45,464 nt of DNA from Planctomycetota bacterium (GTDB lineage Bacteria; Planctomycetota; MHYJ01; WSZJ01): positions 1 through 45,464 of the forward strand of contig JAIOPR010000052.1 of assembly GCA_021413805.1 (NCBI GenBank), written 5' to 3'. The translations under genes and the position numbers were made by a program. Positions within the stretch are counted from its first letter, which is position 1, and each line of letters begins with the position of its first letter. Under the pieces are notes generated by a model. That model saw only the letters and a program-made list of their open reading frames with translations, ran no database searches and was not told the origin of the DNA. This document shows, piece after piece, positions 8,908-39,125 of the stretch.

Positions 8908-9033
8908 ACCTGCAGTGTAACGGGAGGAGGGAGTGCGAAGCGAGTGGCGGGCTGGGTGTCAGGATTACCGGGCAGGAATGCTCCGGAAACCTGGCAAGTT
9001 CGCCCCTGAGGCCCGCCCCGCTTCGCTCAGGCC

Positions 9034-9049
9034 CGGCACGGGTCTTGCG
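9034..9049 (+). promoter_or_regulatory. sigma54 -24/-12 promoter
   Basis: CGGCAC-GGGTC-TTGCG upstream of the lipid kinase gene. Confidence 0.75.
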
Positions 9050-9145
9050 CCACCTCAAGGGCTTAGGCCGGGAATTGGCTGACAGGCAGATGCTTCGCCT
9101 GGAGTTCTTTGAGTCCGACACGCACTCCTTGCTCCCCCGTGATCC

Positions 9146-10060
9146 ATGATGCCTTCAACCCTGCCCGTGATCGTCAACATCGCTGCCGGCAAGGGCCACG
9201 GCACGGTGAGTCTCGACGCGATTCGCGAAGCGTTTCGCGCCGCGGGGAGGGATGTGGATATTCTGCCGGCCCGGGACATCGCCGAACTTGAGTCGCTCTC
9301 GCGGCGCGCCGCGGCGGAGGCTCATCCCACCATCGTCGCCGCGGGTGGCGACGGGACGCTGAGCGCGGTGGCCGCGGCCATCGTGGATTCCCCCAGCGCA
9401 CTCGGTGTGCTGCCGCTCGGGACCCTGAACCACTTCGCACGGGACCTTCGCATTCCGCTGGTGCTTGAAGAAGCCGCGCGCACCATCGCAGCAGGCAACG
9501 CGGTGATGGTGGACGTGGGAGAGGTCAATGGCCGGGTCTTCATCAATAACTCGAGCATCGGCCTCTATCCCACCGTGGTCCTGCACCGCAAAAACCAGCA
9601 GCGGCGCCTCGGGCGCAGCAAGTGGCAGGCGTTCTTCTGGGCGACCCTGACCGTGCTGGGGCGCCATCCGATGCTGGACGTCCGGTTGAGCCTGGACGAC
9701 GTCCCTGTCGCCCGTCGTACCCCGCTCGTCTTCGTCGGCAACAACGATTACATGATGGAAGGATTCCAGGTCGGCACGCGCGGTCGCTTCGACGCCGGGC
9801 GGCTGTGCGTTTACCTCACCCAGCGCCAGAGCCGCTGGGCGCTCATCCGGCTCGGACTGCACGCACTCTTCGGCACGATCAAGACGGCGAAACAATTCGA
9901 GTCGCTCACCGCCCGCACCGTCAGCATCTCGACGCGCCACGCCCGCCTCCCCGTCGCGACCGACGGCGAAGTCACCGTGATGGCGATGCCCCTCAACTAC
10001 CGGATCCGCCGCGGCGCCCTCAAGGTGATCGTGCCGCTTCCCGAAGCGCAGAACAACTGA
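9146..10060 (+). CDS. diacylglycerol/lipid kinase family protein (YegS/DAGK-like)
   Basis: Motifs VIVNIAAG, AAGGDGT, LPLGTLNHFARDL, FINNSSIG and TDGE. Confidence 0.9.
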   Translation: MMPSTLPVIVNIAAGKGHGTVSLDAIREAFRAAGRDVDILPARDIAELESLSRRAAAEAHPTIVAAGGDGTLSAVAAAIVDSPSALGVLPLGTLNHFARDLRIPLVLEEAARTIAAGNAVMVDVGEVNGRVFINNSSIGLYPTVVLHRKNQQRRLGRSKWQAFFWATLTVLGRHPMLDVRLSLDDVPVARRTPLVFVGNNDYMMEGFQVGTRGRFDAGRLCVYLTQRQSRWALIRLGLHALFGTIKTAKQFESLTARTVSISTRHARLPVATDGEVTVMAMPLNYRIRRGALKVIVPLPEAQNN

Positions 10061-10869
10061 TGCGCATCATCGCCCACCTGTCGGACCTGCATTTCGGGCG
10101 CGTGGACGAAGCGCTCCTCGAGCCGCTGCGGCTTCGAGTTCGGGAACTGGCGCCCCACCTCGTCGTGGTCTCGGGCGACCTCACGCAGCGCGCCCGGCCG
10201 TCGCAGTTCCTCGCCGCCCGGCGCTACCTCGATTCGCTTCCCCAACCGCAGGTCGTCGTCCCCGGCAACCACGACGTGCCGCTCTACAACGTCTTCCAGC
10301 GCTTCTTCCAGCCGTTCCACAAGTATCGGCGATTCATCAATGAGGACCTCGAACCCGGGTTCTGCGACGAAGAGATCGCGGTGGTCGGCATCAACACGTC
10401 GCGCTCCTTTACCTGGAAGGAAGGGAGCATCAATGCAGGCCAGGTCGCGAAGGTGCGCGCGAAGCTCTTCGGCGGCCCCGCGAATGTCGCGAAGATCATC
10501 GTGACGCACCACCCGTTCGACGTCCCCGAGGGGCGCGACGAGAACCAGCTCGTTGCCCGCGCGGAGATGGCGATGAAAGTTTTCGCCGAGTGCGGCGCCG
10601 ACATCCTGCTCTCCGGGCATCTGCACACGACCCACACGACGCATTCCGCCGAGCGCTACAGGATCCCCGGCCATTCCGCGCTGATCGTCCAGGCGGGAAG
10701 CGCCACTTCCACCCGGACCCGCGGCGAGTCGAACAGTTTCAACGTGCTTCACGTGACGCCCGGCGACATCCGCATCGATCGCTACACCTGGGAGCCCGGG
10801 AAGAACGAGTTTTCGCACGCCGGAAGCGAGGAATTCTCGCGCGCATCGGAGGGCTGGCATCGCAAATGA
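10060..10869 (+). CDS. calcineurin-like metallophosphoesterase (CpdA/Icc-like)
   Basis: Motifs HLSDLHFG, SGDLTQ, PGNHD, THHP and GHLH. TGATG overlap with the upstream kinase gene. Confidence 0.9.
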   Translation: MRIIAHLSDLHFGRVDEALLEPLRLRVRELAPHLVVVSGDLTQRARPSQFLAARRYLDSLPQPQVVVPGNHDVPLYNVFQRFFQPFHKYRRFINEDLEPGFCDEEIAVVGINTSRSFTWKEGSINAGQVAKVRAKLFGGPANVAKIIVTHHPFDVPEGRDENQLVARAEMAMKVFAECGADILLSGHLHTTHTTHSAERYRIPGHSALIVQAGSATSTRTRGESNSFNVLHVTPGDIRIDRYTWEPGKNEFSHAGSEEFSRASEGWHRK

Positions 10870-10970
10870 GGCGCCGGAAGAACTCGCCACGGAGGCAGTG
10901 AATCATGGGGACGAGTCCAACCTTCTTGTTCTGCCTCAATCGTCGCCCCTGGCGGTCCGCCTCGCTTCAG

Positions 10971-13537: not shown

Positions 13538-13543
13538 CCCCCC

Positions 13544-14413: not shown

Positions 14414-14969
14414 CGGGCGCCGAAGGAGATTCAGGCGGCGTCGTAGCCGACGAGGGGAGTCTTGATATCTGCAGCGGAAACCCCGCCGGCCGTTTCGTCG
14501 CCCGTCAGGAGATCGCCCTGGCACGGCTCGCCCCCACTCCACCCGAGGGGCGCCGAAGAGGCGCGCGCCCACAGCCTCTCCGGCCGAGGCACAGCCGCGA
14601 CAAGCGGTGTGCCGGCCCCATCGGATTGAGAGGAAGCAAGGAGGGCCGACTCATTCCCACTCGCAGGCCCCCCGGCACGCGTACGGCGCCCCGGGCCCGG
14701 AGCGAAAATCGAGAGCAGCAGGATCCAAACCAGTGCGGCGATGAGCAGCATCCGGCCTCCTTTCGTTGCACGACACGAAGATGGTAGGCGGGGCCTGTGA
14801 AGCGCGCGTTCAGCGGGCGTGAAGTCTTGCCGAATGCGCCAGATTCTTTTCGGGACTCGAATTCACCGGGAATTAGCGCGGGCTTCACGCTCCCTTGGTG
14901 GCCAGGCGGTTTCATCCCTGTCGTCCCCGCGCGAGTGCCGCGAGGAACCGACCAGAAACAGGAGCCCCC

Positions 14970-17059: not shown

Positions 17060-17878
17060 TCAGAACTGGATGGTGACCTCGGCAAAGAACCCCTGGACTG
17101 CCATCTCAATGTCGAAGTGGTCGTCCCCTCGCCGATCCTCAAGATCGATCCCGATGTAGCGGTACCCGGCGCCGATGGCGACGTTCTGGAAAAGGTAGAA
17201 CTTGGCCTGCACCGTTGCATCGAGGAAACCGGTGCGGATCTCGCGATACCGGATGTACATGGCCTCCGCGTCGGCCTCTAGGGAAATGCAGTTCAGGAAA
17301 CCGAAGCTGGCAGAGGCCCGCGCGACGGGAATGACAGTGTCGCTGTCAACGCGCTCCCGCGGACCGTTGGGGTCCTTCTTCACCGCGCCTTCGGCGTAGA
17401 GGTACCGGCCGCCGACACCGAGACCCAGCCGGAAACCGGCCTTCTTCGCTTCGCCGACATCGATGAGCATGAACTCCGCATCGACGCCACCACTCCGCAC
17501 CGTGACCTCCGAATCCACATCGTCGAACGTGTTGTACTTCGTCCCGTTGTACGTGAAGCTATCGGAGACGACTTGCGAAGATTCATATTCCTGCTGGAAG
17601 TAGCGGGCTTCGACACGCAGGCGCTTGAAGCGCACCTGGGCGAGCCCCTCGACGGCAATCTTGTCATTGCCCAGGTCGAGATCGTCATGCCAGTCGATCT
17701 TGCTTCCGTCGATATCCTCGGTGCCGACTTCCGCGCTGCCTTCGAGCCTCGCCAGCCAGGCGCGACCTTCAACCTTGATGAGGTAATCGTCGATCGACTT
17801 CCCGTCGAGGTCGAAGATTCCCCCGGCGAAGGCCGGGACAGCGCAGAGCGCGAGCGCCAGGCAAATCCTTGTGAGCAT
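17060..17878 (-). CDS. outer-membrane beta-barrel protein
   Basis: Signal peptide MLTRICLALALCAVPAFA, amphipathic strands, IGAGYRY motif and C-terminal Phe (GFFAEVTIQF). Confidence 0.8.
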   Translation of the reverse strand: MLTRICLALALCAVPAFAGGIFDLDGKSIDDYLIKVEGRAWLARLEGSAEVGTEDIDGSKIDWHDDLDLGNDKIAVEGLAQVRFKRLRVEARYFQQEYESSQVVSDSFTYNGTKYNTFDDVDSEVTVRSGGVDAEFMLIDVGEAKKAGFRLGLGVGGRYLYAEGAVKKDPNGPRERVDSDTVIPVARASASFGFLNCISLEADAEAMYIRYREIRTGFLDATVQAKFYLFQNVAIGAGYRYIGIDLEDRRGDDHFDIEMAVQGFFAEVTIQF

Positions 17879-17917
17879 AAGATGTCCTCTGTCTTCCCGA
17901 TGGTGAGAATGGGTCAC

Positions 17918-17963: not shown

Positions 17964-18242
17964 TCAGCGGCGGCCCAGGAAGAACCCGAGCAGCGCACCC
18001 GCGACGGAAGCGGCGAGGACCGAGCGGAGAGGGTTACGCGACACGGCCTCTCCCGTCGTGGCGCGGATGGCCAGTACCTTGCGACGCCCAGCTTTCGCGG
18101 CGCGCTTGGAACCGGTTTTCAGGGTCGCCAGGTTGCGCTCGACAGCCTCTTCTACCCTGTCCTTGATCGAAGTCATTCCATCCGTCAGCGCGTGGGCCCT
18201 GGAAGCGTGGTTCGAACGATGTCCATTTGAGCTGTGTGCCAT
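17964..18242 (-). CDS. DUF883 / ElaB-YqjD family tail-anchored protein
   Basis: C-terminus VSRNPLRSVLAASVAGALLGFFLGRR. AAAGGAG RBS. Confidence 0.8.
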   Translation of the reverse strand: MAHSSNGHRSNHASRAHALTDGMTSIKDRVEEAVERNLATLKTGSKRAAKAGRRKVLAIRATTGEAVSRNPLRSVLAASVAGALLGFFLGRR

Positions 18243-18280: not shown

Positions 18281-18296
18281 AGCAAAGACAATGCCA
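18281..18296 (-). promoter_or_regulatory. sigma54 -24/-12 promoter
   Basis: Minus strand TGGCAT-TGTCT-TTGCT, about 40 bp upstream of the ElaB-like ATG. Confidence 0.8.
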
Positions 18297-18545
18297 CGGG
18301 ACTGACACGGGAGTTCCTCCTGGTGGCGCGGAACGAATCGGGTCTCCCGGGGCGCCGATCGGCGCGTTGAATCGGCAAAACTTGCCCAAAACGGAAATTC
18401 ATTCTCCCCGCGGGCGGTCCCGGGGAAGACCAGGAACGACCTTGGCGTCATTCGAAGGCAGGAATCCGATCCGGCGCGCAAGTCTCGTACACTTCCAGGC
18501 CTCGGCTCGCGATCCCCGAACCAGCGGGCCCAGCCGGCAGACGCG

Positions 18546-21798: not shown

Positions 21799-21814
21799 TG
21801 CAAGGCTTATGCCG
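21799..21814 (-). promoter_or_regulatory. sigma54 -24/-12 promoter (doxX-hss-oxidase)
   Basis: Minus strand CGGCAT-AAGCC-TTGCA. Confidence 0.8.
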
Positions 21815-21943
21815 GAGCTTGCAAGGCGCGGGGGACGGTCCTTCGCAAAGCAGGTCTCCGATTGCAGGTAGAACTTTCCGATTCGATGCCGAAATTCGGG
21901 GCACTTCGACTCCGCCCCCACGGTTCCACACGGGGACCGGCCC

Positions 21944-21959
21944 CGGCACGCGGCGTGCA
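21944..21959 (+). promoter_or_regulatory. sigma54 -24/-12 promoter (hydrolase gene)
   Basis: CGGCAC-GCGGC-GTGCA with exact GG-N10-GC spacing. Confidence 0.65.
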
Positions 21960-23545: not shown

Positions 23546-23577
23546 CCTGGTCTCCTTTTGTGATGAAAGCAAAGGTT

Positions 23578-23593
23578 CGCAAAAGCCGTTCCC
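23578..23593 (-). promoter_or_regulatory. sigma54 -24/-12 promoter
   Basis: Minus strand GGGAAC-GGCTT-TTGCG, 33 bp upstream of ATG 23545. Confidence 0.65.
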
Positions 23594-23745
23594 GCGAGCG
23601 CTGGCAGCGCGTCGAGTGCGGCGACTCATGGAAGCGTGCGATGCGCAGTATTGGGTGACTCACACCCGGAAGCTCCCCCCGCGGTCGGTCACATTGACCG
23701 GGACTCCTCTGGGCGAACTCCGGTACAGGCACTTGTTACCGAGTC

Positions 23746-25185
23746 TCAGGACCCAGGAGGCGAGGCGGGCACATCGAGCGTCCCCCATTGCTTCAACTTG
23801 TTGTACAGCGTCTTAACGCCGATCCCCAGGATGCGCGCTGTCGCCGTCCGCTTGCCGCGGCAGGATCGAAGCGTCGCCATGATCAGGGCCCGTTCCATTT
23901 CGGCGAGCGTCATGCCGATGGCCACCGGGATGCCCTGCGCGCCCCCTGCGACTGTCGGCACCATCGGTTCAGCGGATGCAGGCGCCGCCGGGGCAGGCGA
24001 AGGCGCCGTTGCCGCCGGGTGACCGGCGGACTCCGGTATCATCGACAGGTTCCCGGGCTCGATATCCACGTCCGCCAGGATCCACGCTGCCTGCACCACA
24101 TTGCGCAGCTCGCGAACATTGCCGGGCCACGAATGCGATTCGATCCGCGCCAGCGATTCCGGCACGAAACGCTTCACGACCTCCTTGTCACAATTCATCT
24201 GCCCTAGCGCGTGCTCCGCAAGGAGACGCACGTCGCCACCGCGCTCGCGAAGCGACGGCATGCGGATGTGGAACCCCCGCAGCCGGTAATACAGGTCCTC
24301 CCTCAGCTTGCCCTGTGCGATCGCTTCGGCTGGCTCCCGGTTCGTCGCGGCGACGATCCGGACGTTGACGTCCGTCTCCTTCTCGCCCCCGATCCGCAGG
24401 ACGCGCCCCGTCTCGAGGACTCGCAGCAGCTTCACCTGCAGATCCGGCGACATCTCGCCGATCTCGTCCAGCAGCAGCGTCCCGCCGCTCGCGCGCTCGA
24501 AGTAGCCGGCGTGGCGCTGGGTCGCGCCCGTGAAACTGCCTTTCTCGTGGCCGAAAAGCTCGCTCTCGATCATGGAGGAGGCTACGGCGCCGCAGTTGAT
24601 CGCGAGGAAGGGCCCTTCGGCTCTCGGGCTCATGTCGTGAAGCGTCATCGCGGCCAGTTCCTTGCCCGTGCCGCTTTCCCCGGTGACGAGCACGGTGGCC
24701 TCCGTCGGGGCGACGCGGGAAAGCAGATCGTAGACTTGCTGCATCGCGGGGGAGCCGCCGATGAGCCGCCCGAATCGCCCGAGCTGCCTCAACTCGTCGC
24801 GCAGTTCGCCGATTTCCCCGCGCAGCCGGAGCGTGCGGTGGACGCGCGTCAGGGCCCGACGGAGGGCAACGGTGGACACGGGTTCGTGCAGGACGTCGAT
24901 CGCCCCGGAGCGCTGGGCGTCGAAGGATTCCTTTCCCAGGGGCGCGAGCGCGACAGCCTCCATTCGGGGAAGGCCGCTTATCTCGCGGACGAACTCCAAC
25001 CCGTCGCCGTCCGGGAGTTGCGGGTCCACCAGGACGGCATTGGGCGCAAACCGTTCGAGGGAAGCCCTGGCCGAACTCAGCGATCCCGTGACCGAGACCG
25101 AGTGCCCCTCTTTTTCCAGCGCCATGCCCAGGTCGGTGCGCCTGGACTCATCCGCCTGAACGACCAGGATACGCATTTTCATCAT
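23746..25185 (-). CDS. sigma54-dependent enhancer-binding protein, NtrC/Fis family (atypical receiver)
   Basis: Walker A GESGTGKE, ESELFGHEKGSFTGA, Walker B LLLDEIGE, WPGNVREL and Fis HTH (TARILGIGVKTLYNKL). GGAGG RBS. Confidence 0.95.
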   Translation of the reverse strand: MMKMRILVVQADESRRTDLGMALEKEGHSVSVTGSLSSARASLERFAPNAVLVDPQLPDGDGLEFVREISGLPRMEAVALAPLGKESFDAQRSGAIDVLHEPVSTVALRRALTRVHRTLRLRGEIGELRDELRQLGRFGRLIGGSPAMQQVYDLLSRVAPTEATVLVTGESGTGKELAAMTLHDMSPRAEGPFLAINCGAVASSMIESELFGHEKGSFTGATQRHAGYFERASGGTLLLDEIGEMSPDLQVKLLRVLETGRVLRIGGEKETDVNVRIVAATNREPAEAIAQGKLREDLYYRLRGFHIRMPSLRERGGDVRLLAEHALGQMNCDKEVVKRFVPESLARIESHSWPGNVRELRNVVQAAWILADVDIEPGNLSMIPESAGHPAATAPSPAPAAPASAEPMVPTVAGGAQGIPVAIGMTLAEMERALIMATLRSCRGKRTATARILGIGVKTLYNKLKQWGTLDVPASPPGS

Positions 25186-25535
25186 CACCTCCGTCAAACA
25201 CGCTCCATCGCCTGGCGGCGGAGAAGCGCTTCGCACCGCGTCGCGAACGCGGTGGACACGAGAATTTTACTTCGAGAGTTGAGGGGGTGGACTTTCGATT
25301 CGGCGCTCGGTCAGATTTTCCGGGAAACCCCTAGGGGTTCGACTCCCTTGATTCGGGGGGTTGCGCGCTTCGGACGCACCGCCTCGAAATCAACGTTGAT
25401 CCACTACTGGCAAGCGGGCTAGTGGAATAGAGGAGGAATTTTTCGGGGAGCGGACCCGATGGTTATTCCGGAGGGAGTGTCGTATTTGTTATCCGCGGTG
25501 AGACAAGTCCCCTGGACCTATGCCAAGGAGGGTTC

Positions 25536-29002: not shown

Positions 29003-29437
29003 TCAGGCGCGCGAACAGTTGACCTTCAGCCAATAGCGCGCCAGCAGGCCCACGGTTGACACGAACTCCTCAAACTCAAGGGGCTTCACGACGTAACTGT
29101 TCACCCCCAGGTCATAACAGACCGCGCGATCGGCGGGCTCGCTCGATGAAGTCAGGATGACCACCGGCACCAGCTTCAACGCAGGGTCGCTCTTCATCCT
29201 CTTCAGCACCTCGATCCCGTCCACGAGCGGCAGCTTGATGTCCAGGATCACTACCTTTAGTTCGCCCGCGGTTGCCGGCTCGCCCTGCGGAAAAAGAAAG
29301 GTCAGTGCTTCCGCCCCGTTCTTCACCCTGTGCAGACCGCGGGACAGCTGGTTCTTTTCGAGCGCCCAGACCGTCATTTCCGCGTCGGCGGAGTTGTCCT
29401 CGACGAGGAGAACCTCCTCATGCTGGTTTGCCGGCAT
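29003..29437 (-). CDS. single-domain response regulator (Rcp1/CheY-like)
   Basis: Motifs LLVEDN, ILDIKLP, ILTSS and GVNSYVVKP. Confidence 0.92.
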   Translation of the reverse strand: MPANQHEEVLLVEDNSADAEMTVWALEKNQLSRGLHRVKNGAEALTFLFPQGEPATAGELKVVILDIKLPLVDGIEVLKRMKSDPALKLVPVVILTSSSEPADRAVCYDLGVNSYVVKPLEFEEFVSTVGLLARYWLKVNCSRA

Positions 29438-31076
29438 GGCCTTGACCCTCCGTTGGAAGTGAGAAATGGAAGGCGGCGCCCGCCCCGGTCTTGCCTTCCG
29501 CCCAGACGCGGCCGCCATGGCGCAGGATCACGCGCTGGACAAGCGCGAGCCCGACGCCCGTCCCTTCGAACTCTTCGCTGGAATGAAGCCTCTGGAACAC
29601 CCCGAACAGCTTGCTCGCAAACGTTTCGTCGAACCCGACGCCGTTGTCGCGGACAGTCCAGACGGTCTCGCCCTTGTCCTGCCGGGAAGTGAACTCGATG
29701 ACCGCGGACTCCCGCGGCCGCGTGTACTTCACGGCATTGCCGAGGAGATTTGCCAGCACCTGGCGGAGAAGCGCCTGGTCACCCCACGCAGGCGCCAGGT
29801 CCCCGATCCTGAAGTCGATCTTCCTGCCGGCATTCGCCACACGCAACTCGTCGCTGACGGCACACGCAAGGGTCGTCATGTCAACGCGGGAGCGGTTCAA
29901 CTCCGCCCGGCCCATCCGCGAGAAGGCCAGCAGGTCGTCGATCAGCTGCGCCATGCGGCGCGTATTCGTCACCACGACCTCCGTCAGCCGCTTCCCCTCC
30001 GCATCCAGGCTCGCAGAGTGCCGGTCCACGAGGCGGCGTGTAAAACCTTCAATGGCGCGAAGCGGCGCGCGCAGGTCGTGCGAGACGGAGTAGCTGAAGC
30101 TCTCCAGCTCCTTGTTCGCGGCCTCGAGCTGGGCGGTGCGTTCGCTCACGCGCCGCTCGAGCTCCACATTGAGCCGAAGCGCGTCGATCGCAGCCTTCTT
30201 TGCTTCGCTCACGTCCCGTGCCACGGCGTAGATCAGGCGTTCGCTCGGGTACGGCGTTCCCGTCCACGCGAGCCACACGTAGTCGCCGCCTGCGCGCCGG
30301 AAGCGGTTCTCGAAAGAAACCGCGCCGGGCTCCTTCTTGAGCAACTCAAGGGCCTCCCCCGTCGAGGGACGGTCGTCGGGGTGGACAAATTCCAGGAACG
30401 GGCGGCCGGTGACGCGAGCAGGAGTCCATCCCAGGGTTCCTTCCCACGGCGGGTTCCCCTCCCGGATATTGCCGTCAAAGCCTGCGATGCAGATCAAGTC
30501 AGGGGAGAGCGCGAAGAACCGGTTCCGCTGCTCGGTAACCTGCTCCAGCAGCCGGCGGTGCTGGCGGTCCTCCATGCGACGCAGTTGCTCCGCCTGGATC
30601 CTGACCTCCCTCATCGCCCGCGCCAGGTCCACGAACACCGAGACTTTCGAGTGGATCGCCTCCGCGGAGATCGGCTTCATGATGAAATCAGCCGCGCCCA
30701 CGGCGTACGCGTGTTGAAGACTATCGGGCGACGACTCCTCCGCAGTCAGGAAGATGATCGGCGTCGCACGCGACCGCTCCCGCTTCCGGATCATCTCCGC
30801 CGTTTCAAAACCGTTCATCCCCGGCAGGTGCACATCCAGCAGGATCGCCGAGAAGTCGCGGTCCAGGAGACACCGAAGCGCCTCCTCGCCCGACGAAGCC
30901 TTCACGAGCTGGACGTCCAGGTCGCCAAGGATCGCCTCCAGCACCATGAGGTCTTCCGCCCGGTCGTCAACCAGCAGGACGCTGATCCTGGAATCGCGCG
31001 GCGCCTTGGACGCGGGCTGGCGCGTGGCCTCTGACTTGGCCCTGCCCGGGACCGGATTGACACTCTTTCGCGGCAT
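29418..31076 (-). CDS. REC-PAS histidine kinase
   Basis: N-terminal receiver (LLVDD..LLDVHLP..IMKP), PAS (FVHPDD), H-box SYSVSHDLRAPLR and HATPase (DNGVGF, FEGTGVGLA). Confidence 0.93.
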   Translation of the reverse strand: MPRKSVNPVPGRAKSEATRQPASKAPRDSRISVLLVDDRAEDLMVLEAILGDLDVQLVKASSGEEALRCLLDRDFSAILLDVHLPGMNGFETAEMIRKRERSRATPIIFLTAEESSPDSLQHAYAVGAADFIMKPISAEAIHSKVSVFVDLARAMREVRIQAEQLRRMEDRQHRRLLEQVTEQRNRFFALSPDLICIAGFDGNIREGNPPWEGTLGWTPARVTGRPFLEFVHPDDRPSTGEALELLKKEPGAVSFENRFRRAGGDYVWLAWTGTPYPSERLIYAVARDVSEAKKAAIDALRLNVELERRVSERTAQLEAANKELESFSYSVSHDLRAPLRAIEGFTRRLVDRHSASLDAEGKRLTEVVVTNTRRMAQLIDDLLAFSRMGRAELNRSRVDMTTLACAVSDELRVANAGRKIDFRIGDLAPAWGDQALLRQVLANLLGNAVKYTRPRESAVIEFTSRQDKGETVWTVRDNGVGFDETFASKLFGVFQRLHSSEEFEGTGVGLALVQRVILRHGGRVWAEGKTGAGAAFHFSLPTEGQGHAGKPA

Positions 31077-34000
31077 CAGGCCTCCACCCTCTTGCTCTGG
31101 TACATCCAGACCCGGACCAGCGAAAGCAACTGCTCCGTGTCTACCGGTTTCGGGATGTAATCGGAAGCACCCGCTTCAATGCATCGCTCGCGGTCTCCCT
31201 TCATCGCTTTCGCCGTCAGCGCGATGATCGGAAGCGTCTTGAGGTCGTCCTGCATCCGGATCTGCCTCATCGCCTCGTAGCCGTCCATTTCCGGCATCAT
31301 GATGTCCATCAGGACGACGTCCACTCCCCGTCCCCGGCTCTTGAGAAGCTCCACCGCCTCTTTTCCATTCTGCACAAAGGAGGTCTTCAACCCGTGCCGT
31401 TCGAGCACCGACGTGAGGGCAAAGATGTTACGGATGTCGTCGTCCACGATCAGGACGCGGCGATCCGTGATCAGCGGGTCCATCTGGAGCGTGTCGAGGA
31501 GCATCCGCCGCTTATGCTCGGGGAGCGTCGCGGTGACCCGGTGAAGGAACAGGGCGGTTTCGTTGAAAAGCCGCTCCGGGCTGTTCGCGTCCTTCACGAT
31601 GATCGCGCCGGCGTGTTTGCGGAGCTGGGACTCCTCTTTCCGCGAGAGGGACTTCCCTGTGTAGACGACGATCGGGAGGTGCCCCAGGCCGGGATTCTCG
31701 CGGATCTTCCCGAGCAGTTCGAACCCGGACATGTCGGGGAGCCGCAGGTCGAGGACCATGCAGTCGAAAGGCTTCGACTCGAGGGCCTGGAGCGCATCGC
31801 CCCCGGTGCCAACGGCCGTGATTTCCACATCCTTGCCGCCGAGCATCTCGGAGAGCCCGCGCCGCTGGGCTTCGTCGTCTTCCAGGACGAGGAGGTGCTT
31901 CACCGGCTTGTCGATGAACTTCCGGAGCCGCGTGAGCGCCTCCCCGATCGCCTCGCGTGACACGGGCTTCTGCAGGAATGAGAACGCCCCGAGCTTGAGG
32001 CCCCGCTCGCGGTTGTCATCCGCCGTGACGATCTGGACCGGGATGTGGCGCGTCTCCGGGTCGTGTTTGAGGCAGTCGAGGAGCGCCCAGCCGTCCATGT
32101 CCGGCATGCGCATGTCCATCATGAGCGCATCGGGCTTGAATTTCCTGGCCATCTGCAGGCCGATCTCGCCTCCCGTCGCAATCAGGCCCTTGAATCCGTT
32201 TTCATGCGCCAGGTCGAGAAGGACATGGGAGAACGTGTAGTCGTCCTCGACGATCAACACAACCTTGTCCCCCGGCTGCGTCGCTCCACGGTCGTCGTGC
32301 ACTTCCCGCAGCAACGAGTTCACCGGGGACGAATCCACCGCTTCCGTCGCACGGGGAGTGACAGGCCGCCCGGCCACGGTGGTGTATTCCTGCAGGGTGT
32401 GCGATCCATCCCTCGACGCGCGGGACTTGACCGGGGCGAAGTCGAGGGGAAGGTAGAGGGTAAAGGTACTTCCTTCCCGCACCTTGCTCGTGAGCCCGAT
32501 CTCGCCGCCGAGCATCTTGGCGATTTCGCGGCTGATCGAGAGGCCGAGGCCGGTGCCTCCGTATTTGCGGCTCGTCGTCATGTCGGCCTGCTGGAAAGGC
32601 TCGAAGATGATCTGCTGCTTGTCCTCGGGGATGCCGATCCCGGTGTCGGTGACCGAGAAGGCGATGACCGTCTCCGCGCTGTTGAGAATCGGGTGGTCCT
32701 GGCTCCAGCCTGACTGCGCCACCGTCATCCGCAGAGAAACACCGCCCTTCTGCGTGAACTTGAAAGCGTTCGACAGGAGGTTCCTCAACACCTGCTGCAG
32801 CCGCTTCGAATCCGTCTGCATCGCGGAAGGAAGCGCCGGGTCCAGCTGCATCGCAAAGTCGAGCTTCTTGTTCTGCGCGATCGGCCGGAAGCTGGGCTCG
32901 TTGTCAGCCAGGATGTCCTTGAACGACAAGGTTGCGATTTCGAGCGCCATCGTCCCGGACTCGATTTTCGACAGGTCCAGGATGTCGTTGATGAGGCTGA
33001 GGAGGTCGGAGCCCGACCCGTGAATCGCGCGCCCGAACTCGACCTGCTTCGGCGTCAGGTTTCCTTCCGGGTTCTCGTAGAGCATCTTCGCCAGGATCAG
33101 CAGTGAATTCAGCGGCGTCCGGAGCTCGTGCGACATGTTCGCGAGGAATTCCGACTTGTACTTCGACGTCAGCGCGAGCTGCTCGGCCTTTTCCTCGATT
33201 TCCGCGTTCGTCTGCTGGAGTTCCTGCGTCAGGGCCTGCGACTTCTTGAGAAGCGCCTCAGTGTTCATCGTCGCGGCGATCGTGTTGAGCACGATGCCGA
33301 TCGATTCGGTGAGCTGGTCGAGGAAGTGAAGGTGCGTCTCGTTGAAGCTCTTGAAGGACCCTAGCTCGATGACGGCGCGGACCTGGGACTCGAAGAGCAC
33401 GGGGAGGACGACGATGTTGGACGGGGTCGCGTTCCCGAGGCCGGAAGAGACCCGGACGTAGTTGTCGGGGACGCGGTCGAGCAGGATCCGTTTCTTTTCG
33501 ATCGCGCACTGGCCGACGAGCCCGTCGCCGACGTTGAAGCGGGTGGGCAGGTCTTCGCGGGCGGAGTAGCCGTATCCGGAGACGAGGTTCAGCGCGGAAC
33601 CGTCGTTGGATTCATCGAGGGCATAGAAGACGGAGTGCTGGGCGCCGACGAGGGGCGCGAGTTCCGAGAGGATCTGGCGGGAAACGGACTCGAGGTCGCG
33701 CTGGCCCTGGAGCATGCGGGTGAACTTGGCGAGGTTGGTCTTGAGCCAGTCCTGCTCCGCGTTCTTCTGCGTGGTTTCGCGGAGGTTGCGGATCATTTCG
33801 TTCAGGTTGACCTTGAGGTTTTCGACTTCGCCGGCGGCCTCGACCGTGATGGACCGGGTCAGGTCGCCCTTCGTGACCGCGGTGGCGACGTCGGCGATCG
33901 CGCGCACCTGGGTGGTGAGGTTGGCCGCGAGTTGGTTTACGTTGTCGGTGAGGTCGCGCCAGATGCCGGTGGCGCCGGGAACGCGGGCCTGGCCGCCGAG

Positions 34001-36442
34001 GCGTCCCTCGACGCCGACTTCGCGAGCCACCGTCGTCACCTGGTCTGCGAACGTTGCCAGCGTGTCGATCATGTCGTTGATGGTGTCGGCCAGCGTCGCG
34101 ATTTCGCCGCGCGCCTCGAGGGACAGCTTGCGCTGAAGCTCGCCCTTGGCGACGGCAGTCACGACGACGGCGATTCGGCGCACCTGGGTCGTGAGGTTGG
34201 ACGCCATGAAATTCACGCTGTCGGTCAGGTCCTTCCAGACGCCGGCCACGCCCTTCACCTGCGCCTGTCCGCCCAGCTTCCCTTCCGTGCCGACCTCGCG
34301 CGCCACGCGCGTCACTTCGCCGGCGAACGCGTTCAGCTGGTCCACCATCGTGTTGATCGTGTCTTTCAGCTGCAGGATTTCGCCTTCGACCTTGACCGTG
34401 ATCTTGCGGGAGAGGTCGCCTCGCGCCACGGCGGTCGTGACGTCCGCGATGTTGCGCACCTGGGACGTCAGGTTCGACGCCATGAAATTCACGTTGTCGG
34501 TCAGGTCCTTCCAGACGCCGCCGACGCCGCGCACCTGCGCCTGGCCTCCCAGTTTTCCTTCCGTGCCGACTTCGCGCGCCACGCGCGTCACTTCACTCGC
34601 GAACGCGTTCAGGCGGTCCACCATCGTGTTGATCGTGTCCTTCAACTGCAGGATTTCGCCCTTCACCTCGACCGTGATCTTGCGGGAAAGGTCGCCGCGA
34701 GCGACGGCGGTCGTCACGTCGGCGATGTTGCGCACCTGCGACGTCAGGTTCGATGCCATCGAGTTCACGTTGTCCGTCAGGTCCTTCCACACGCCGGCCA
34801 CGCCTTTCACTTCTGCCTGGCCTCCCAGCTTTCCTTCCGTGCCGACTTCGCGCGCCACGCGCGTCACTTCGCCCGCAAATGCGTTGAGCTGGTCCACCAT
34901 CGTGTTGATCGTGTCCTTCAGCCGCAGGATTTCGCCCTTCACCTCGACCGTGATCTTCTTGGACAGGTCACCCTTTGCCACGGCCGTCGTCACGTCGGCG
35001 ATGTTGCGCACCTGCGAGGTGAGGTTGCCGGCCATCGAGTTCACGTTGTCCGTCAGGTCTTTCCAGACGCCGGCGACGCCTTTCACCTGCGCCTGGCCGC
35101 CCAGCTTCCCGTCCGTGCCGACTTCGCGCGCCACACGGGTCACCTCGCCTGCGAACCCGTTCAGCTGGTCCACCATCGTGTTGACCGTGTTCTTGAGCTG
35201 CAGGATTTCGCCCTTCACCGCGACCGTGATCTTCTTCGAGAGGTCGCCCTTGGCCACCGCCGTCGTGACTTCCGCGATATTGCGCACCTGGCTGGTCAAG
35301 TTCACGGCCATGAAATTGACGTTGTCGGTCAGGTCCTTCCAGACGCCGGCCACACCCCGCACCTGCGCCTGCCCGCCGAGCTTTCCTTCCGTGCCGACTT
35401 CGCGCGCCACGCGCGTCACTTCGCCCGCGAACGCGTTCAGCTGGTCAACGAGCGTGTTGATCGTGTCCTTCAGCTGAAGAATTTCTCCTTCGCCTTTCAC
35501 CGTGATTTTGCGCGACAAGTCGCCCTTGGCTACGGCCGTCGTCACGTCGGCAATGTTGCGCACCTGGCTCGTCAGGTTGCCGGCCATGAAGTTCACGTTG
35601 TCCGTCAGGTCCTTCCACACGCCGGCCACGCCTTTCACCTGCGCCTGGCCGCCCAGTTTTCCTTCCGTGCCGACTTCGCGCGCCACGCGCGTCACTTCAC
35701 CCGCGAACCCGTTCAACTGGTCCACCATCGTGTTGATCGTGTTCTTCAGCTGCAGAATTTCGCCCTTCACCTCGACCGTGATCTTCTTCGACAGGTCGCC
35801 CTTCGCCACGGCCGTCGTCACGTCCGCGATGTTTCGCACCTGCGATGTCAAATTCCCGGCCATCGAGTTCACGTTATCCGTCAGGTCCTTCCAGACGCCG
35901 GCCACGCCTTCCACCTGCGCCTGCCCGCCCAGCTTTCCCTCGGTGCCTACTTCGCGCGCGACACGCGTCACTTCCGAAGCGAATGACCCCAGCTGGGACA
36001 CCATCGTGTTCACCGTGCGCGCCATCTGCAGGAACGACCCCCGCACCGGCTTGCCCTCGATCTGCGTCGGCATTTTCTGCGAGAGGTTCCCGTTCGCGAC
36101 CGACCCGATCACGCGCGCCACCTCGTTCGTCGGCCGCACCAGGTCGCCGATCAGTGAGTTCGCGGCGTTCACTGTCTTCAGCCAGGATCCGGAAGAGCCG
36201 CGAAGCGCGGCGCGTTCCGAGAGCTTTCCTTCCTTACCGACCACCCGGCTCACCCGCTGGAACTCCTCCGCCATCCGTTCGTTCTGCCGGATGATCGCGT
36301 TGAGGGTCCGGGCGATTTCACGGCCGGGCCCTCCGCGAGGAACCCGGCAGCGCGTCGCAAAATTGCCCCTTTTGACGGACCGGAGGGTCAAGAGGAGATC
36401 CGGGACGTTGAGAGGATCTCGAACCTTGGTGGCCTGTCTCAC
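31076..36442 (-). CDS. poly-HAMP hybrid histidine kinase (OsaA / fungal group III NIK1-like): HAMP array-GAF-HisKA-HATPase-3xREC
   Basis: 92-aa [11 protein letters not shown] repeats, H-box [20 protein letters not shown] and three receivers. GTG start with TAAGGAG RBS. Confidence 0.95.
33780..36250 (-). repeat. intragenic tandem repeat, 276-bp unit, about 9 copies (7 well conserved)
   Basis: The VWKDLTD-coding motif recurs every 276 bp (e.g. 34229, 34505, 34781, 35057, 35333, 35609, 35885). Outer boundaries are approximate. Confidence 0.9.
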
Positions 36443-36845
36443 AGGAAACTCCTTAGGGAGTGCGGGGAGGCGGGAGGGCGGACATGATCGAAGCCGGGGT
36501 GGATGACGGGGCTCCGTGGCCGGAGGCCGGGTGTGCGATTCCGCTGTGAAGCGGAGGCACGACTCGTTCTGCTGCCGACGGGGGTCGGTCGAGCAATGGG
36601 GCGCCGCCAGGAAGGGGGCGCCGGGGTTCCCGGGTTCGCAAGGAGTATAACCGACGCACTGGAATTGTGTCCGCGGGGGCGCTCAAGAAAATCAGGGGGT
36701 TTTGAAGACGACATCGGGAGGACCAGTTCGTAGCTCCCCGCGGCCGTCCTTCCCCGATCAGCCGGACAAGAATGGTTTCCAGGATGGGTGTCTCCATTCG
36801 CGATCCGGGGATTCCGCCGGAAATTCGGCGGCGTGAAGCAGCGAA

Positions 36846-36861
36846 AGCAAGGCGCGTGCCG
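36846..36861 (-). promoter_or_regulatory. sigma54 -24/-12 promoter
   Basis: Minus strand CGGCAC-GCGCC-TTGCT, about 400 bp upstream of the poly-HAMP kinase start. Confidence 0.75.
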
Positions 36862-36973
36862 CCGAGTTTGCGGGCTACGCAGAGCCTGTTCCCGGGCAAT
36901 GGCTCTCGAATCCCGGGAATAGTTGCCGATGTTTGTGTTTCGTTCCCCCCGGGCGGCAGGCGCATGGCACACC

Positions 36974-37405
36974 TCAGCACCCGAGCAGGATCGGCGGTTT
37001 TCCAAATCTCTTCCGCAGCCTGTTGATGCGTCCCTGGACGCTCGGGCGCTTGAGCAGCTTCCGCTGCAACTTTCGCTTGGACGGGAAATCCGTGATTGAG
37101 AACCCGATCAGGAAGAGAAGCGTGCCCGGAAAAGGGACGCCCGGGATCGCGAGGATGAGTCCGACGATGGCCAGGAGGAATCCACAGATGTTCCTGGTCC
37201 AATAAGTGATTTTTCCCCGCACGCCGACCCGCGGCGTGGGCGCATGCCGCTTCAGCGAAAGATAATCCGCGGGCATGAGGACGATGAAGAGGGCGCACAG
37301 GGCGAAGCTGCCCATCACCGTGAGCACGGCCACGAGCAGAACGGAAGCGAACCCTTCCGCTGAGAGGCCGACGTACCCTGCCATCGAATTGAAGATCTGT
37401 TTCAT
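36974..37405 (-). CDS. PGPGW-family small membrane protein
   Basis: TM segments, IPGVPFPGTLLFLIG..DFPSKRKL and INRLRKRFGKPP. Confidence 0.75.
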   Translation of the reverse strand: MKQIFNSMAGYVGLSAEGFASVLLVAVLTVMGSFALCALFIVLMPADYLSLKRHAPTPRVGVRGKITYWTRNICGFLLAIVGLILAIPGVPFPGTLLFLIGFSITDFPSKRKLQRKLLKRPSVQGRINRLRKRFGKPPILLGC

Positions 37406-37467
37406 GGCTATGCCTCAACCTGAGGTTTCGATCCCATGGTGCTTTCACTCGAGGGCAATCATTCGTT

Positions 37468-37483
37468 TGCAACGACCATGCCG
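37468..37483 (-). promoter_or_regulatory. sigma54 -24/-12 promoter
   Basis: Minus strand CGGCAT-GGTCG-TTGCA. Confidence 0.75.
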
Positions 37484-37602
37484 CTTCCGGGCGAACGGAA
37501 GCCGGATTCATCCTCGCGGGCATCGGCGGTAGCGCATACCCGAGGCGGTAGCAATGACCGGCGGGGGTGCGGCGCAATTCGATCGGCGGCCTGTATGCGG
37601 GC

Positions 37603-37618
37603 GGGCACTTGTTTTGCT
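37603..37618 (+). promoter_or_regulatory. sigma54 -24/-12 promoter
   Basis: GGGCAC-TTGTT-TTGCT upstream of the DUF1328 gene. Confidence 0.75.
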
Positions 37619-37725
37619 TCCTTCACACGCCGGCACTGCTGATTCCGCACGCGCGGCGCGGAAAAGGTTTCCAACCCTCCCCGTTGAAGCGCTCAAGTCA
37701 CGGGGACAAATAAACGGAGGTTCCC

Positions 37726-37911
37726 ATGCTGTACTGGTCCCTGGTTTTCTTCATCGTCGCCATCGTTGCGGCCGTCTTCGGATTCGGAGGCATCGCCGCT
37801 GGTGCCGCGGGAATCGCGAAGATCCTGTTCTTCTTCTTCGTGGTCATCTTCCTCGTGTCATTGATCTGGGGCCTCCTCAACGGCCCGCGGTCCCGTCCCC
37901 CGGCTGTTTAG
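37726..37911 (+). CDS. DUF1328 (YtjA/UPF0391) small membrane protein
   Basis: [44 protein letters not shown]. Confidence 0.95.
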
Positions 37912-37972
37912 TATCGCGATTCGCGCGCAGCTACGTGACTTGGGCCGGGTTTGCGATGAGTCAGGTATGGTC

Positions 37973-38007
37973 CCGGGGGGGTGCAGCCGAAGGTCGCACC
38001 CCCCCGG
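37973..38007. terminator. 12-bp stem-loop between convergent genes, putative terminator
   Basis: CCGGGGGGGTGC-N11-GCACCCCCCCGG. No clear U-tract. Confidence 0.55.
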
Positions 38008-38026
38008 AATCACGCGTTTCGAACCA

Positions 38027-38920
38027 CTACGCTCCCCTGCCCGCGACCGTTTCACTTCCGCGGCCTCGTTCTCCCCGAACGACCAGCACGGGGGACTTCA
38101 ATTCGCGAAGCACCTTCTCCGCGACGCTGCCCGCCACCGGCCTCGACACGCCCTTTCGCCCCTGCGTCGCCATCGCGACCAGGTCGGCGTCGTGGGTGCG
38201 ACTGGCGTCGAGAATTTCGGAAGCGGGGTCGCCGAGGCGAAACAGGGGATCGACGGCGATGTGGTCGTGGGAGAGCGCATCGACCGCGACCCGCACAAGG
38301 GGGTCCCCCTTGCAGCTTGAACGCCGTCCGGCTGGCTCGACGACGCCGAGCACAATCACGCTGGCGCCGAAGGCGCCCGCCAGGGACCGGACGTGGGGCA
38401 GGGCCGCGAGCGAATTCCCGGTGCCGAGGACCGGCATCAGGATCCTCCGGATCGGGACCTCGTGGGCCGAGGTCCGGGCGGCACCAGCGGCGACCTGCTC
38501 GAAAGATCTCAGGATGAGAACGGGAATCTCGCTCTTCCGCAGCACCTGCTCCGTCACGCTCCCGAAGACGCAATGTGAGCGGCCGGTGCGGCCATGCGTG
38601 GCCATGGCAATGAGGGTCGCGCCCTCGTCCCGGGCCACTTCCAGGATTCCACCGGCTTCCCGGCCCACGTGCACGACCCCAAGCACCCTCACGCTGTTCT
38701 TTCGAAGCTCGCGCGCCAGCGCCGAGAGGTAGCGCTCCGCTTCGGCTTTTGTGTCCCGAAGGCTGAAAGGAGCGCTGCCAGGGCGAGGGTGCAATGGGAC
38801 CGGGATGGCGCGCATGAGAATCAGGGTGGCGCCCCGGGTGCGGATCAGGTGGACAACCGGGCCGAGAATGGCCTCGGCTATTTCGGAGCCGTCAAGCGGT
38901 ACCAGAATGCGACGGAGCAT
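38027..38920 (-). CDS. tandem-domain universal stress protein
   Basis: RRILVPLDGS, LIAMATHGRTG..FGSVTEQVLR, and a second domain LVAMATQGRKG..GSVAEKVLR. Confidence 0.93.
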   Translation of the reverse strand: MLRRILVPLDGSEIAEAILGPVVHLIRTRGATLILMRAIPVPLHPRPGSAPFSLRDTKAEAERYLSALARELRKNSVRVLGVVHVGREAGGILEVARDEGATLIAMATHGRTGRSHCVFGSVTEQVLRKSEIPVLILRSFEQVAAGAARTSAHEVPIRRILMPVLGTGNSLAALPHVRSLAGAFGASVIVLGVVEPAGRRSSCKGDPLVRVAVDALSHDHIAVDPLFRLGDPASEILDASRTHDADLVAMATQGRKGVSRPVAGSVAEKVLRELKSPVLVVRGERGRGSETVAGRGA

Positions 38921-38959
38921 GGGGTGGGCCTCAAGGGTGGCCGATCGCAGCTTCTGATC

Positions 38960-38975
38960 TGCATACCGTGTGCCC
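38960..38975 (-). promoter_or_regulatory. sigma54 -24/-12 promoter (usp)
   Basis: Minus strand GGGCAC-ACGGT-ATGCA, 40 bp upstream of ATG 38920. Confidence 0.65.
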
Positions 38976-39125
38976 CTTGAAAAGCATCCACGGACCGGCC
39001 GGAATACGTCATCGCGGGGAGGAGCACGCCGGGAGCCCGGCCAATTCGCCCGCATCCTCCTGCAACAATTCCCGCCGCGCGTACTTCTTGCAGGCCCCAC
39101 CGGATCGCAGCCCGACGGAACCCTC

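Follow-up and report, generated by a model that had tools for sequence, protein, structure and literature searches.

Tandem palindromic dyads upstream of sigma-54 promoters in a planctomycete contig, candidate enhancer sites of an NtrC-family activator

Short palindromic dyads recur upstream of sigma-54-like promoters in a contig of a Planctomycetota bacterium (JAIOPR010000052.1), which raises the question of which protein reads them, and whether a single activator serves them all. The window analysed here is the whole stretch of 45,464 nucleotides. To our knowledge, the transcriptional wiring of Planctomycetota is almost unexplored; the source planctomycete and the related genomes are uncultured. 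The window holds ten promoters of the -24 GG / -12 GC type with dyads upstream (dyads are listed without strand):

8957..8969: candidate dyad, picked de novo, weak (7.9-9.5 bits), 72 bp from the -24 GG
9034..9049, plus strand: sigma-54-like promoter (GG-N10-GC scan, 6/8) of a lipid kinase (YegS/DAGK) gene at 9146-10060 that has Pfam and NCBIfam matches
14819..14831: site before a CBS gene, rejected, probably a chance match
18281..18296, minus strand: sigma-54 promoter (GG-N10-GC scan) of a DUF883/ElaB-like gene (17964-18242) and a beta-barrel protein gene (17060-17917)
18374..18405: tandem dyads 18374-18386 and 18393-18405, 19 bp apart, both picked de novo, one an exact palindrome
21799..21814, minus strand: sigma-54-like promoter (GG-N10-GC scan) of a DoxX gene (21286-21747)
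21867..21879: one strong dyad, halfway between promoters 21814(-) and 21944(+), which diverge
21944..21959, plus strand: sigma-54-like promoter (GG-N10-GC scan) of an alpha/beta-hydrolase gene (ends 22866)
23578..23593, minus strand: sigma-54 promoter of a 202-aa gene (22940-23548), with a GGAAC variant of the -24 element
23687..23740: two dyads, 23687-23699 and 23728-23740, 41 bp apart, just 3' of the stop codon of an activator gene
36846..36861, minus strand: sigma-54 promoter (scan score 7/8) of a HAMP/GAF hybrid-kinase operon (36442 down to 29003)
36894..36927: tandem dyads 36894-36907 (a weak half-match) and 36915-36927, 21 bp apart
37468..37483, minus strand: sigma-54 promoter of a 143-aa membrane protein gene (36974-37405), kept in 3/3 genomes
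37528..37559: tandem dyads 37528-37540 and 37547-37559, 19 bp apart, centred on the midpoint of the divergent pair
37603..37618, plus strand: sigma-54 promoter of a DUF1328 gene (37726-37911; Pfam PF07043), kept in 3/3 genomes
38960..38975, minus strand: sigma-54-like promoter (GG-N10-GC scan) of a tandem-USP gene (38027-38935)
39039..39092: three dyads, 39039-39051, 39061-39073 and 39080-39092, at spacings of 22 and 19 bp, flanked by divergent promoters
39126..39141, plus strand: sigma-54-like promoter (GG-N10-GC scan) of a PAS-kinase / receiver / receiver-GGDEF operon (about 39226-42832)

A sequence-only reading of the window had listed twelve such sites under the consensus GGYAR-N3-TKRCC and attributed them all to one activator. 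The twelve strings are all present where it placed them; the consensus itself is too narrow, and its exact matches do not rise above chance (three matches, that is two distinct sites with one palindrome counted on both strands, against an expectation of 0.91, and three were reached in 8 of 100 shuffles). When one mismatch is allowed there are 37 matches versus 24.9 +/- 5.7, a count reached in 4 of 100 shuffles. Near-palindromes in general (5+5, at most one mismatch) are not enriched in the upstream regions at any spacer (nine versus 14.5 for spacer 3). The palindromic de novo search that the same reading had proposed did recover a motif: a hard-EM search under a palindrome constraint (seven upstream regions, two sites in each, width 13) returned a looser dyad, nGnAA-N3-TTnCC, with an information content of 9.48 bits. 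Dinucleotide shuffles gave 7.49 +/- 0.22 bits (25 sets, maximum 8.17), a first 25 sets of real intergenic regions gave 7.53 +/- 0.51 bits with one set at 9.66, and a further 230 real sets gave 7.57 +/- 0.32 bits (maximum 8.82); 9.48 bits was thus reached by none of the 25 shuffled and one of the 255 real intergenic sets.

The search picked ten of the twelve listed sites (8957, 18374, 18393, 21867, 23687, 23728, 36915, 37528, 37547 and 39061); site 39080 was added to the set later, and 14819 was absent from the search input. Taking all evidence together, ten of the twelve are supported, the two that fell away being 14819 and 8957. There is no GG-N10-GC element in 14700-14900, and site 14819 is not kept in the related genomes G005 or G004, both of which have the CBS orthologue (the conserved block there is 14858-14890). 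For 8957 and its promoter at 9034 the search for an orthologous intergenic region came up empty, and in G002 the neighbouring gene is a different one. The best of all sites is 21867 (14.0-14.4 bits), and position 3 of the dyad is variable even inside single tandems. The motif is low in information: a matrix built from 11 window sites finds 202 genome positions of at least 11 bits, 51 of them intergenic by a crude mask, and 13 of the 25 high-scoring matches in the window lie within genes. An all-against-all comparison of 15 regions found only one 14-base and one 16-base word shared; with no similarity beyond short words, copying of one duplicated cassette is excluded as the origin of these promoter regions.

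The arrangement of the sites is more regular than their sequence. The pairing that had been noted at about 19-20 bp is borne out: centre-to-centre distances are 19 bp at 18374/18393, 37528/37547 and 39061/39080, 21 bp at 36894/36915 and 41 bp at 23687/23728 (partner 36894 and the third site at 39039 are additions to the original list). Site centres lie 40-142 bp upstream of the -24 element: 85 and 104 bp for 18374/18393, 60 and 72 bp from the two -24 GG elements for 21867, 101 and 142 bp for 23687/23728, and 40 and 61 bp for 36894/36915. Dyads sit between the promoters in all three divergent pairs, as had been observed before, with at least one dyad no more than 12 bp from the midpoint. The best two sites are 19-22 bp apart in nine of 15 promoter regions, as opposed to 6.8% of 3512 control windows (binomial p 1e-7), and in seven of 15 after partners below 5 bits are dropped (p 3e-5); spacing played no part in the de novo motif search. 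Genome-wide, six tandems with a sigma-54-like promoter downstream are found at 19-22 bp and zero to one at each of nine control spacings. On contigs outside the matrix set there are no further tandem-plus-promoter cases (intergenic tandems nine, versus 1-13 at control spacings), and a single-site scan outside the window gives no significant link to sigma-54-like promoters (10 versus 6.1 +/- 2.9, maximum 15). Several promoters have only one convincing dyad (21867, and those on contigs C99 and C10); 21867 has no clear partner, and in some extra candidates the second dyad is 14 bp off instead of 19-22 bp.

Conservation singles out the same positions. In five intergenic regions aligned with genus-mates, 95 of 130 columns (73%) are identical within sites and 191 of 557 (34%) elsewhere, columns and related genomes not being independent of each other. 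Identical columns number 22 of 26 in three genomes at 37528/37547 (versus 35 of 93 flanking columns), 19 of 26 in three genomes at 23687/23728, 16 of 26 in three genomes at 36894/36915, 19 of 26 at 39061/39080 (the 39039 dyad likewise lying in a conserved block) and 19 of 26 in G005 at 18374/18393. The -24/-12 elements are conserved in the orthologous regions as well: G004 and G002 have orthologues of promoters 36846 and 39126 and keep the -24/-12 of 23578, together with the ribosome-binding site and start codon after it; G005 has an orthologue of promoter 18281, and G005 and G006 have promoters similar to 37603. The regions orthologous to that of 21867 are uninformative: the hydrolase orthologue in G005 has a matching promoter with a doubtful dyad, and the DoxX orthologue in G006 has no sigma-54 promoter. 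Outside the genus, 11 loci with DUF1328 genes have no dyad above 8.2 bits, and a sigma-54-like element is found at one only.

We also counted the composite of dyad plus sigma-54 promoter genome by genome, with a reversed-pattern control (in brackets). It is frequent only in the five genomes carrying an orthologue of the activator gene next to the 23687/23728 dyads: G000, the genome of the window, 19 (1), G002 11 (2), G004 13 (2), G005 17 (0) and G006 7 (0). The three genus-mates without the orthologue have 0 (1), 6 (3) and 1 (2), the nearest to an exception being G003 with 6 against 3. CsbD, ElaB-like, CBS and small membrane protein genes on other contigs also have sigma-54 promoters preceded by this grammar; these contigs were found with the window-derived matrix, so the first site on each is not independent. 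A second USP cluster beside another activator (contig C214 of G000, with counterparts in G001, G003, G005, G006 and G007) has no dyads.

Could composition alone produce such a pattern? In a genome of 65% GC the intergenic DNA is lower in GC and may often contain an A/T-rich core with GG/CC flanks, and the unenriched exact consensus, the unenriched general palindromes and the one early control set at 9.66 bits would fit a chance origin; we nevertheless disfavour it as highly improbable, given that none of the 230 further control sets reached 9.48 bits, and given the conserved columns, the spacing preference and the reversed-pattern count of 1 against 19. Because the dyads lie upstream of about ten sigma-54 promoters and are conserved in relatives, they are very probably, as judged from sequence, where one family of activator proteins docks, and the earlier proposal of enhancer (UAS) sites read by a sigma-54 activator has good support in the conserved islands, the pairs two turns apart, the presence of rpoN (a PF04552 match of 155.5 bits on contig C96) and the co-distribution with the activator. 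The candidate and its own upstream site are:

23746..25236, minus strand: candidate activator, with receiver, sigma-54-interaction AAA+ and Fis-type HTH domains (Pfam PF00072, PF00158 and PF02954)
25309..25321: dyad upstream of the activator gene itself, conserved, 13.5 bits

The AAA+ and HTH domains score 226 bits (PF00158) and 48.8 bits (PF02954), a Walker A motif is present, and the loop reads GSFTGA (GAFTGA is the signature loop of sigma-54 activators). The receiver domain is low-scoring (35.7 bits, cut-off 30.2), and its usual acidic pair reads Q-A-D. The best NCBIfam match is ntrC with 357.7 bits (cut-off 558.6), and AtoC (328.4 versus 714), LuxO (298.7 versus 800) and ZraR (282.4 versus 760) are below their cut-offs too; on these profile scores the protein is an NtrC-family member with no named equivalog among NtrC, ZraR, AtoC and LuxO. 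Orthologues are found only in G002, G004, G005 and G006, and dyads directly follow the activator gene in G000, G004, G002 and G006. The 25309 dyad, identical in G004 and with one change in G002, lies within a conserved block and has no sigma-54 promoter nearby; autoregulation of the activator gene is possible. The dyad at 37660 is likewise not upstream of a sigma-54 promoter.

Which protein binds, its control by phosphorylation and the stress signal are what we infer, and a different binder has to be considered: a repressor, an anti-activator or an architectural or global regulator (for example the LuxR-type response regulator at 26535-27227), with sigma-54 activators acting from elsewhere or from solution. 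The promoterless dyads at 25309 (conserved) and 37660 and the roughly half of high-scoring window matches that lie inside genes would suit such a protein. We consider it improbable. Sites that lie 40-142 bp upstream, are paired at a distance of two turns and take the centre where promoters diverge follow the layout known for enhancers; it is at the 19-22 bp spacing alone that tandems have sigma-54-like promoters downstream; from genome to genome the composite goes with the activator; and the sites adjoin activator genes in two families.

The claim that one activator recognises all sites fares less well: 23746-25236 is a good candidate, and it has company. G000 encodes about 17 full-length activators, and the DNA-reading helix is matched by more than one of them: a paralogue encoded on contig C8 (51% identity) shares all but two of the eight helix positions, the changes being K/R and L/M, and the helix of an activator on contig C1 is also similar. 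The gene of the C1 activator is followed neither by dyads nor by flgB. Contigs with the paralogue carry dyad-bearing sigma-54 promoters as well (two on C8 of G000, five rows on C68 of G002 and three rows on C24 of G004), and in the related family f5 a flagellar-type activator, whose HTH is the best match there, likewise has a sigma-54 promoter with two dyads behind its gene, the same grammar standing before flgB. The sites may thus be split among at least two paralogous activators with a shared grammar and no single master, the window protein serving the window island and the C8 paralogue its own island and perhaps scattered small stress genes. We hold this division to be rather unlikely: no sub-motif separates the two islands, and position 3 of the dyad varies within single tandems; genome distribution gives no separation, since both paralogues co-occur in the same genomes. 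Our preferred reading, which we think somewhat better than even, is that the dyads are the UAS of a lineage-specific NtrC-family protein, likeliest 23746-25236 and/or its C8 paralogue.

With such a protein, each 13-bp dyad (nGnAA-N3-TTnCC) would bind one dimer via the Fis-type HTH domains, and a separation of about two helical turns between dyads (19-22 bp; once 41 bp) would put the dimers on the same DNA face. The paired dimers could then nucleate the active AAA+ ring, which would contact the sigma-54 holoenzyme 40-140 bp away and drive promoter opening; at divergent promoters, one central dyad pair may serve both. Predicted targets in the window are the DUF883-like and beta-barrel proteins, DoxX, the alpha/beta hydrolase, the 202-aa protein, the 143-aa membrane protein, DUF1328 and the double USP, probably the lipid kinase, and the two sensor-kinase/receiver operons, which would give feedback; the CsbD, ElaB/LEA-like, CBS and small membrane protein genes would be targets on other contigs.

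The dyads and their activator are an additional case of the already known NtrC-family enhancer type. As in NtrC at glnAp2, NorR and LuxO, dyads are predicted to bind dimers and at least two sites to be needed for the active oligomer, and the Fis-type HTH and AAA+ domain with a GAFTGA-type loop are shared; the differences are the two-turn spacing here (19-22 bp) and the ntrC score of the window protein, which is below the cut-off. The NtrC and LuxO sites appear to be unlike the window dyad in half-site order and sequence, and the ZraR motif differs from it too. ZraR (HydG) of enterobacteria is likewise a response-regulator-type NtrC-family activator whose regulon contains the genes of its two-component system together with an envelope-stress protein, and the three divergent pairs with central dyads resemble its arrangement; the differences are the sub-cut-off ZraR score of the window protein and the number of promoters, about 10 in the window and about 18 genome-wide versus one pair. 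For ZraR that pair is the divergent sigma-54 promoters of zraP and zraSR, and NorR has three sites (PMC4987338 and PMC2831303, respectively).

The target set looks like a stress or dormancy regulon. USP, CsbD and DUF1328 are above the Pfam cut-offs; DUF883 (a weak DUF883_C match in the product of the gene behind promoter 18281), LEA, YtxH and ElaB are below them, and these matches speak to gene content only. CsbD, ElaB/DUF883-like, USP and CBS proteins, small membrane proteins and YegS/BmrU-type lipid kinases are typical of the sigma-B, sigma-S and EcfG regulons, and the same types recur here; control here would differ in relying on sigma-54 and an ATP-driven activator, not on a dedicated sigma-70-family factor. 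Sigma-54 control permits tight off-states and strictly signal-dependent firing. We suggest, tentatively and with more doubt than confidence, that sigma-54 and one or a paralogue pair of phospho-activated enhancer-binding proteins run the general stress/dormancy response of this lineage without such a factor, through tandem nGnAA-N3-TTnCC at about 18 promoters, with hybrid sensor kinases of the regulon itself and a diguanylate cyclase as feedback. If so, proteins that stand under sigma-B, sigma-S or EcfG in other phyla are here gathered under sigma-54.

In the literature on sigma-54, enhancer-binding proteins and stress regulation, Planctomycetes included, we found no description of this motif or regulon; only one promoter survey from 2025 touches on it. 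That promoter-matrix survey of Planctomycetia (Carrera-Reyna et al., PLoS One 2025, PMC12316311) found COG0589 (UspA) and COG2204 regulators enriched among predicted sigma-54 targets, in agreement with the USP gene and kinase operons here; its accessible text deals with promoters only, and has no enhancer motif, activator assignment or tandem-site grammar. What the present analysis adds for use is a concrete predicted binding motif, two candidate activators and a defined set of target promoters, and the motif can serve to annotate sigma-54 regulons in related metagenome-assembled genomes. On the tentative stress-response reading given above, the enhancer grammar would predate the regulon, because in related Planctomycetota it serves a flagellar activator, upstream of flgB.

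All the strings that the sequence-only reading had listed as candidate enhancer sites are present at their positions. Its consensus, GGYAR-N3-TKRCC, proved too tight: there are two distinct exact sites (a number equalled in 8 of 100 shuffles), and one mismatch gives 37 matches against 24.9 ± 5.7 in shuffles; palindromes in general are not enriched. Seven upstream regions, ~840 bp in all, were therefore searched by palindrome-constrained hard EM, started from each 13-mer in turn and set to width 13 with two sites in every region, the motif not being supplied. This arrived at the same sites; the consensus, nGnAA-N3-TTnCC, is looser and scores 9.48 bits. Controls gave 7.49 ± 0.22 bits for 25 dinucleotide shuffles (maximum 8.17), 7.53 ± 0.51 bits for 25 sets of real intergenic DNA (one set at 9.66) and 7.57 ± 0.32 bits for 230 further such sets (maximum 8.82). 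A motif was thus recovered de novo, the opposite of what the sequence-only reading had named as its refutation; the dyad is very probably a real shared cis-element.

The genome (4.57 Mb, 82% complete, 65% GC; the window is its contig C22) encodes rpoN and ~17 full-length sigma-54 activators. Signalling and small stress-type genes are densely packed between ~17 kb and 43 kb of the window.

Genes at ~17–43 kb of the window (called by GC3 and Pfam; coordinates where available)
17964–18242, minus strand, DUF883-like gene
23746–25236, minus strand, receiver-AAA+-HTH activator gene
DoxX gene
alpha/beta hydrolase gene
very large HAMP/GAF hybrid kinase operon
143-aa membrane protein gene
DUF1328 gene
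double USP gene
PAS-kinase / receiver / GGDEF operon

A GG-N10-GC scan gave 22 matches in the window, nine of them intergenic and pointing at a gene. The tenth promoter, upstream of a 202-aa gene, is kept in three genomes, along with that gene's ribosome-binding site and start codon. The plain promoter consensus is not above chance in the window (five against 2.7 expected), and support for these promoters lies in conservation, not in the consensus count.

Sigma-54-like promoters in the window (from the GG-N10-GC scan unless noted)
9034, plus strand
18296, minus strand
21814, minus strand
21944, plus strand
36861, minus strand
37483, minus strand
37603, plus strand
38975, minus strand
39126, plus strand
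23593, minus strand, GGAAC variant of the -24 element

A genome scan with the window-derived matrix, its matches then read individually, found the same tandem grammar (two dyads about two helical turns apart) with sigma-54 promoters ahead of genes on other contigs. The first site of these extra loci was chosen with that matrix and is therefore not independent.

Tandems with a sigma-54 promoter on other contigs
C6, ahead of genes for a CBS protein and a receiver-PAS-kinase
C70, CsbD
C129, ElaB/LEA-like protein
C8, glycine-zipper protein near a paralogous activator
C99, C140 and C10, small secreted proteins

Single sites outside the window show no significant tie to promoters, and contigs that gave nothing to the matrix yielded no new case of a tandem with a promoter. 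A composite pattern (one dyad, then GGCAY-N5-TTGC 25–110 bp on) has 19 matches in the genome, representing 18 promoters, against one for the reversed pattern. Among the further candidates that it added are promoters of a transporter-like gene and of a gene for a small membrane protein of 49 aa; some have the second dyad 14 bp off rather than 19–22 bp. Further dyads with sigma-54 promoters were seen at C188:3110–3398, C129:8145 and C326:2922, one of them ahead of the 49-aa protein gene.

The hard-EM search is blind to the spacing between sites. In nine out of 15 promoter regions (seven in the window, eight on other contigs) the two best sites lie 19–22 bp apart, or in seven out of 15 without partners below 5 bits; this spacing occurs in 6.8% of 3512 control intergenic windows (binomial probabilities 1e-7 and 3e-5, respectively). 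Of the 16 intergenic tandems at 19–22 bp across the genome, six are followed by a sigma-54-like promoter; at nine control spacings there were 1–13 intergenic tandems, 0–1 of them with a promoter. Dyad centres are 40–142 bp from the GG of the -24 element. As had been claimed, dyads sit between the promoters in all three divergent pairs, near the midpoint, and the tandem of the 37483/37603 pair is centred exactly on it.

Five upstream regions were aligned with genus-mates (four three-way with G004 and G002, one two-way with G005), and in these the dyads are conserved islands next to the -24/-12 elements. Identical columns number 95 out of 130 in sites and 191 out of 557 elsewhere (odds ratio 5.2; the p-value overstates the case, because columns and genomes are not independent). 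Positions G2/A4 and T10/C12 of the dyad are among the conserved ones.

Identical site columns in the aligned dyads
18374/18393, 19 of 26
23687/23728, 19 of 26
36894/36915, 16 of 26
37528/37547, 22 of 26
39061/39080, 19 of 26

The alignments also revealed two dyads missing from the original list: the partner of 36915, 21 bp away, and, at 39039, a conserved third member of the 39061/39080 group. Other listed sites fared less well. The site at 14819, before the CBS gene, is not conserved, and no GG-N10-GC element was found ahead of that gene; for 8957 no orthologous region was found; at 21867 the string is present and the evidence is thin. What is conserved there, in both G004 and G005, is a block just upstream of the CBS gene (14858–14890) that does not resemble a sigma-54 element and may be another promoter or a regulator site. 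Within the DUF1328 leader, past the 37603 promoter, there is a further high-scoring dyad (37660–37672, 13.3 bits), in a stretch that by eye is partly conserved in G004 and G002.

Orthologues of the window activator occur in four of the seven genus-mates searched (83% identity in G004 and G002, 60% in G006, 56% in G005) and are absent from G001, G003 and G007. Composite matches follow the presence of this orthologue across genomes: 19, 11, 13, 17 and 7 in the five genomes that have it (reversed control: 1, 2, 2, 0 and 0), 0, 6 and 1 in the three genus-mates that lack it (reversed control: 1, 3 and 2), and mostly 0–4 in 33 more distant relatives. The DUF1328 gene is found in five of the eight genomes, the same five; among 11 DUF1328 loci outside the genus no dyad exceeds 8.2 bits, and just one has a sigma-54-like element. 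Dyads lie directly past the activator's stop codon in the window's genome, G004, G002 and G006. Upstream of the activator, the region 25237–25337 is ~80% conserved in G004 and G002 and holds an inverted repeat able to form a stem-loop together with a conserved dyad (25309–25321), features that suggest possible autoregulation or a leader structure.

Comparative work usually pairs a regulator with its motif on the ground that gene and motif adjoin. In the related family f5, one genus (G019, G034, G038) also has many composite matches. Directly behind the activator whose HTH best matches that of the window protein, G019, G034 and G032 (of another f5 genus) have two dyads of GGAA-N5-TTCC type at 20–21 bp spacing, then a sigma-54 promoter, then flgB (loci L103 on G019:C8, L101 on G034:C83 and L105 on G032:C3); in G038 an HTH match and a composite match are adjacent too, judged by coordinates. 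These three loci look like a flagellar regulon on the same enhancer grammar. From dyads lying next to the best-HTH-match activators we infer that the grammar belongs to a wider planctomycete activator clade and is sited beside activator genes. It does not single out one protein. The C8 paralogue (51% identity to the window activator) has the same recognition helix at six out of eight positions, and in the window's genome, G002 and G004 more promoters with dyads lie on the paralogue's contig. The window activator itself is a generic NtrC-family member, under every NCBIfam equivalog cut-off, with a GSFTGA loop, an HTH domain in about its last 60 residues and an atypical, low-scoring receiver domain. 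The dyads are probably an enhancer for an NtrC-family activator; that the window activator alone reads all of them is somewhat less likely than not.

What is observed here are the cis-elements; beyond them we infer binding, phosphorylation and an inducing signal. Activator dimers would dock on each dyad via the Fis-type HTH, and two dyads on the same helix face would nucleate an AAA+ ring, which would remodel the sigma-54 holoenzyme at a promoter 40–140 bp off, in both directions at divergent pairs. Activation would presumably be by phosphotransfer from kinases, several of them inside the regulon themselves, which would give feedback; the kinases encoded in the putative regulon lie at 29418–31076, 31076–36442 and 39226–41498. 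Classical NtrC-family enhancers have the same layout. Nearest among known systems is ZraR, which drives a divergent pair of sigma-54 promoters, those of zraP and zraSR (PMC4987338). A full-text literature search found nothing closer to the motif or regulon than a 2025 survey that predicts sigma-54 promoters ahead of UspA-family and response-regulator genes in Planctomycetia, whose consulted passages contain no enhancer motif or activator assignment (PMC12316311). In its gene content the set recalls the general-stress regulons known from other phyla, and this aspect would be of greater interest if expression data confirmed it.

A long GC-rich hairpin (37940–38035; MFE -56 kcal/mol, z -2.8) separates the DUF1328 and USP genes, which converge on it. 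Elsewhere in the genome seven partial copies are found, all on other contigs, and genus-mates have copies too; a REP-like repeat or a terminator acting in both directions is what it looks like. Because of this hairpin, a 392-aa ORF (37554–38732) was rejected as spurious. The small-gene order of 36400–39600 differs in genus-mates (L056 on G004:C22, L057 on G002:C39, and G005:C65), and the DUF1328 match in G004 is broken into two frames. In G004 and G005 the neighbour of the 143-aa and DUF1328 genes is the homologue of the beta-barrel gene at 17060–17917, and the G004 homologue is preceded by a sigma-54-like promoter of its own.
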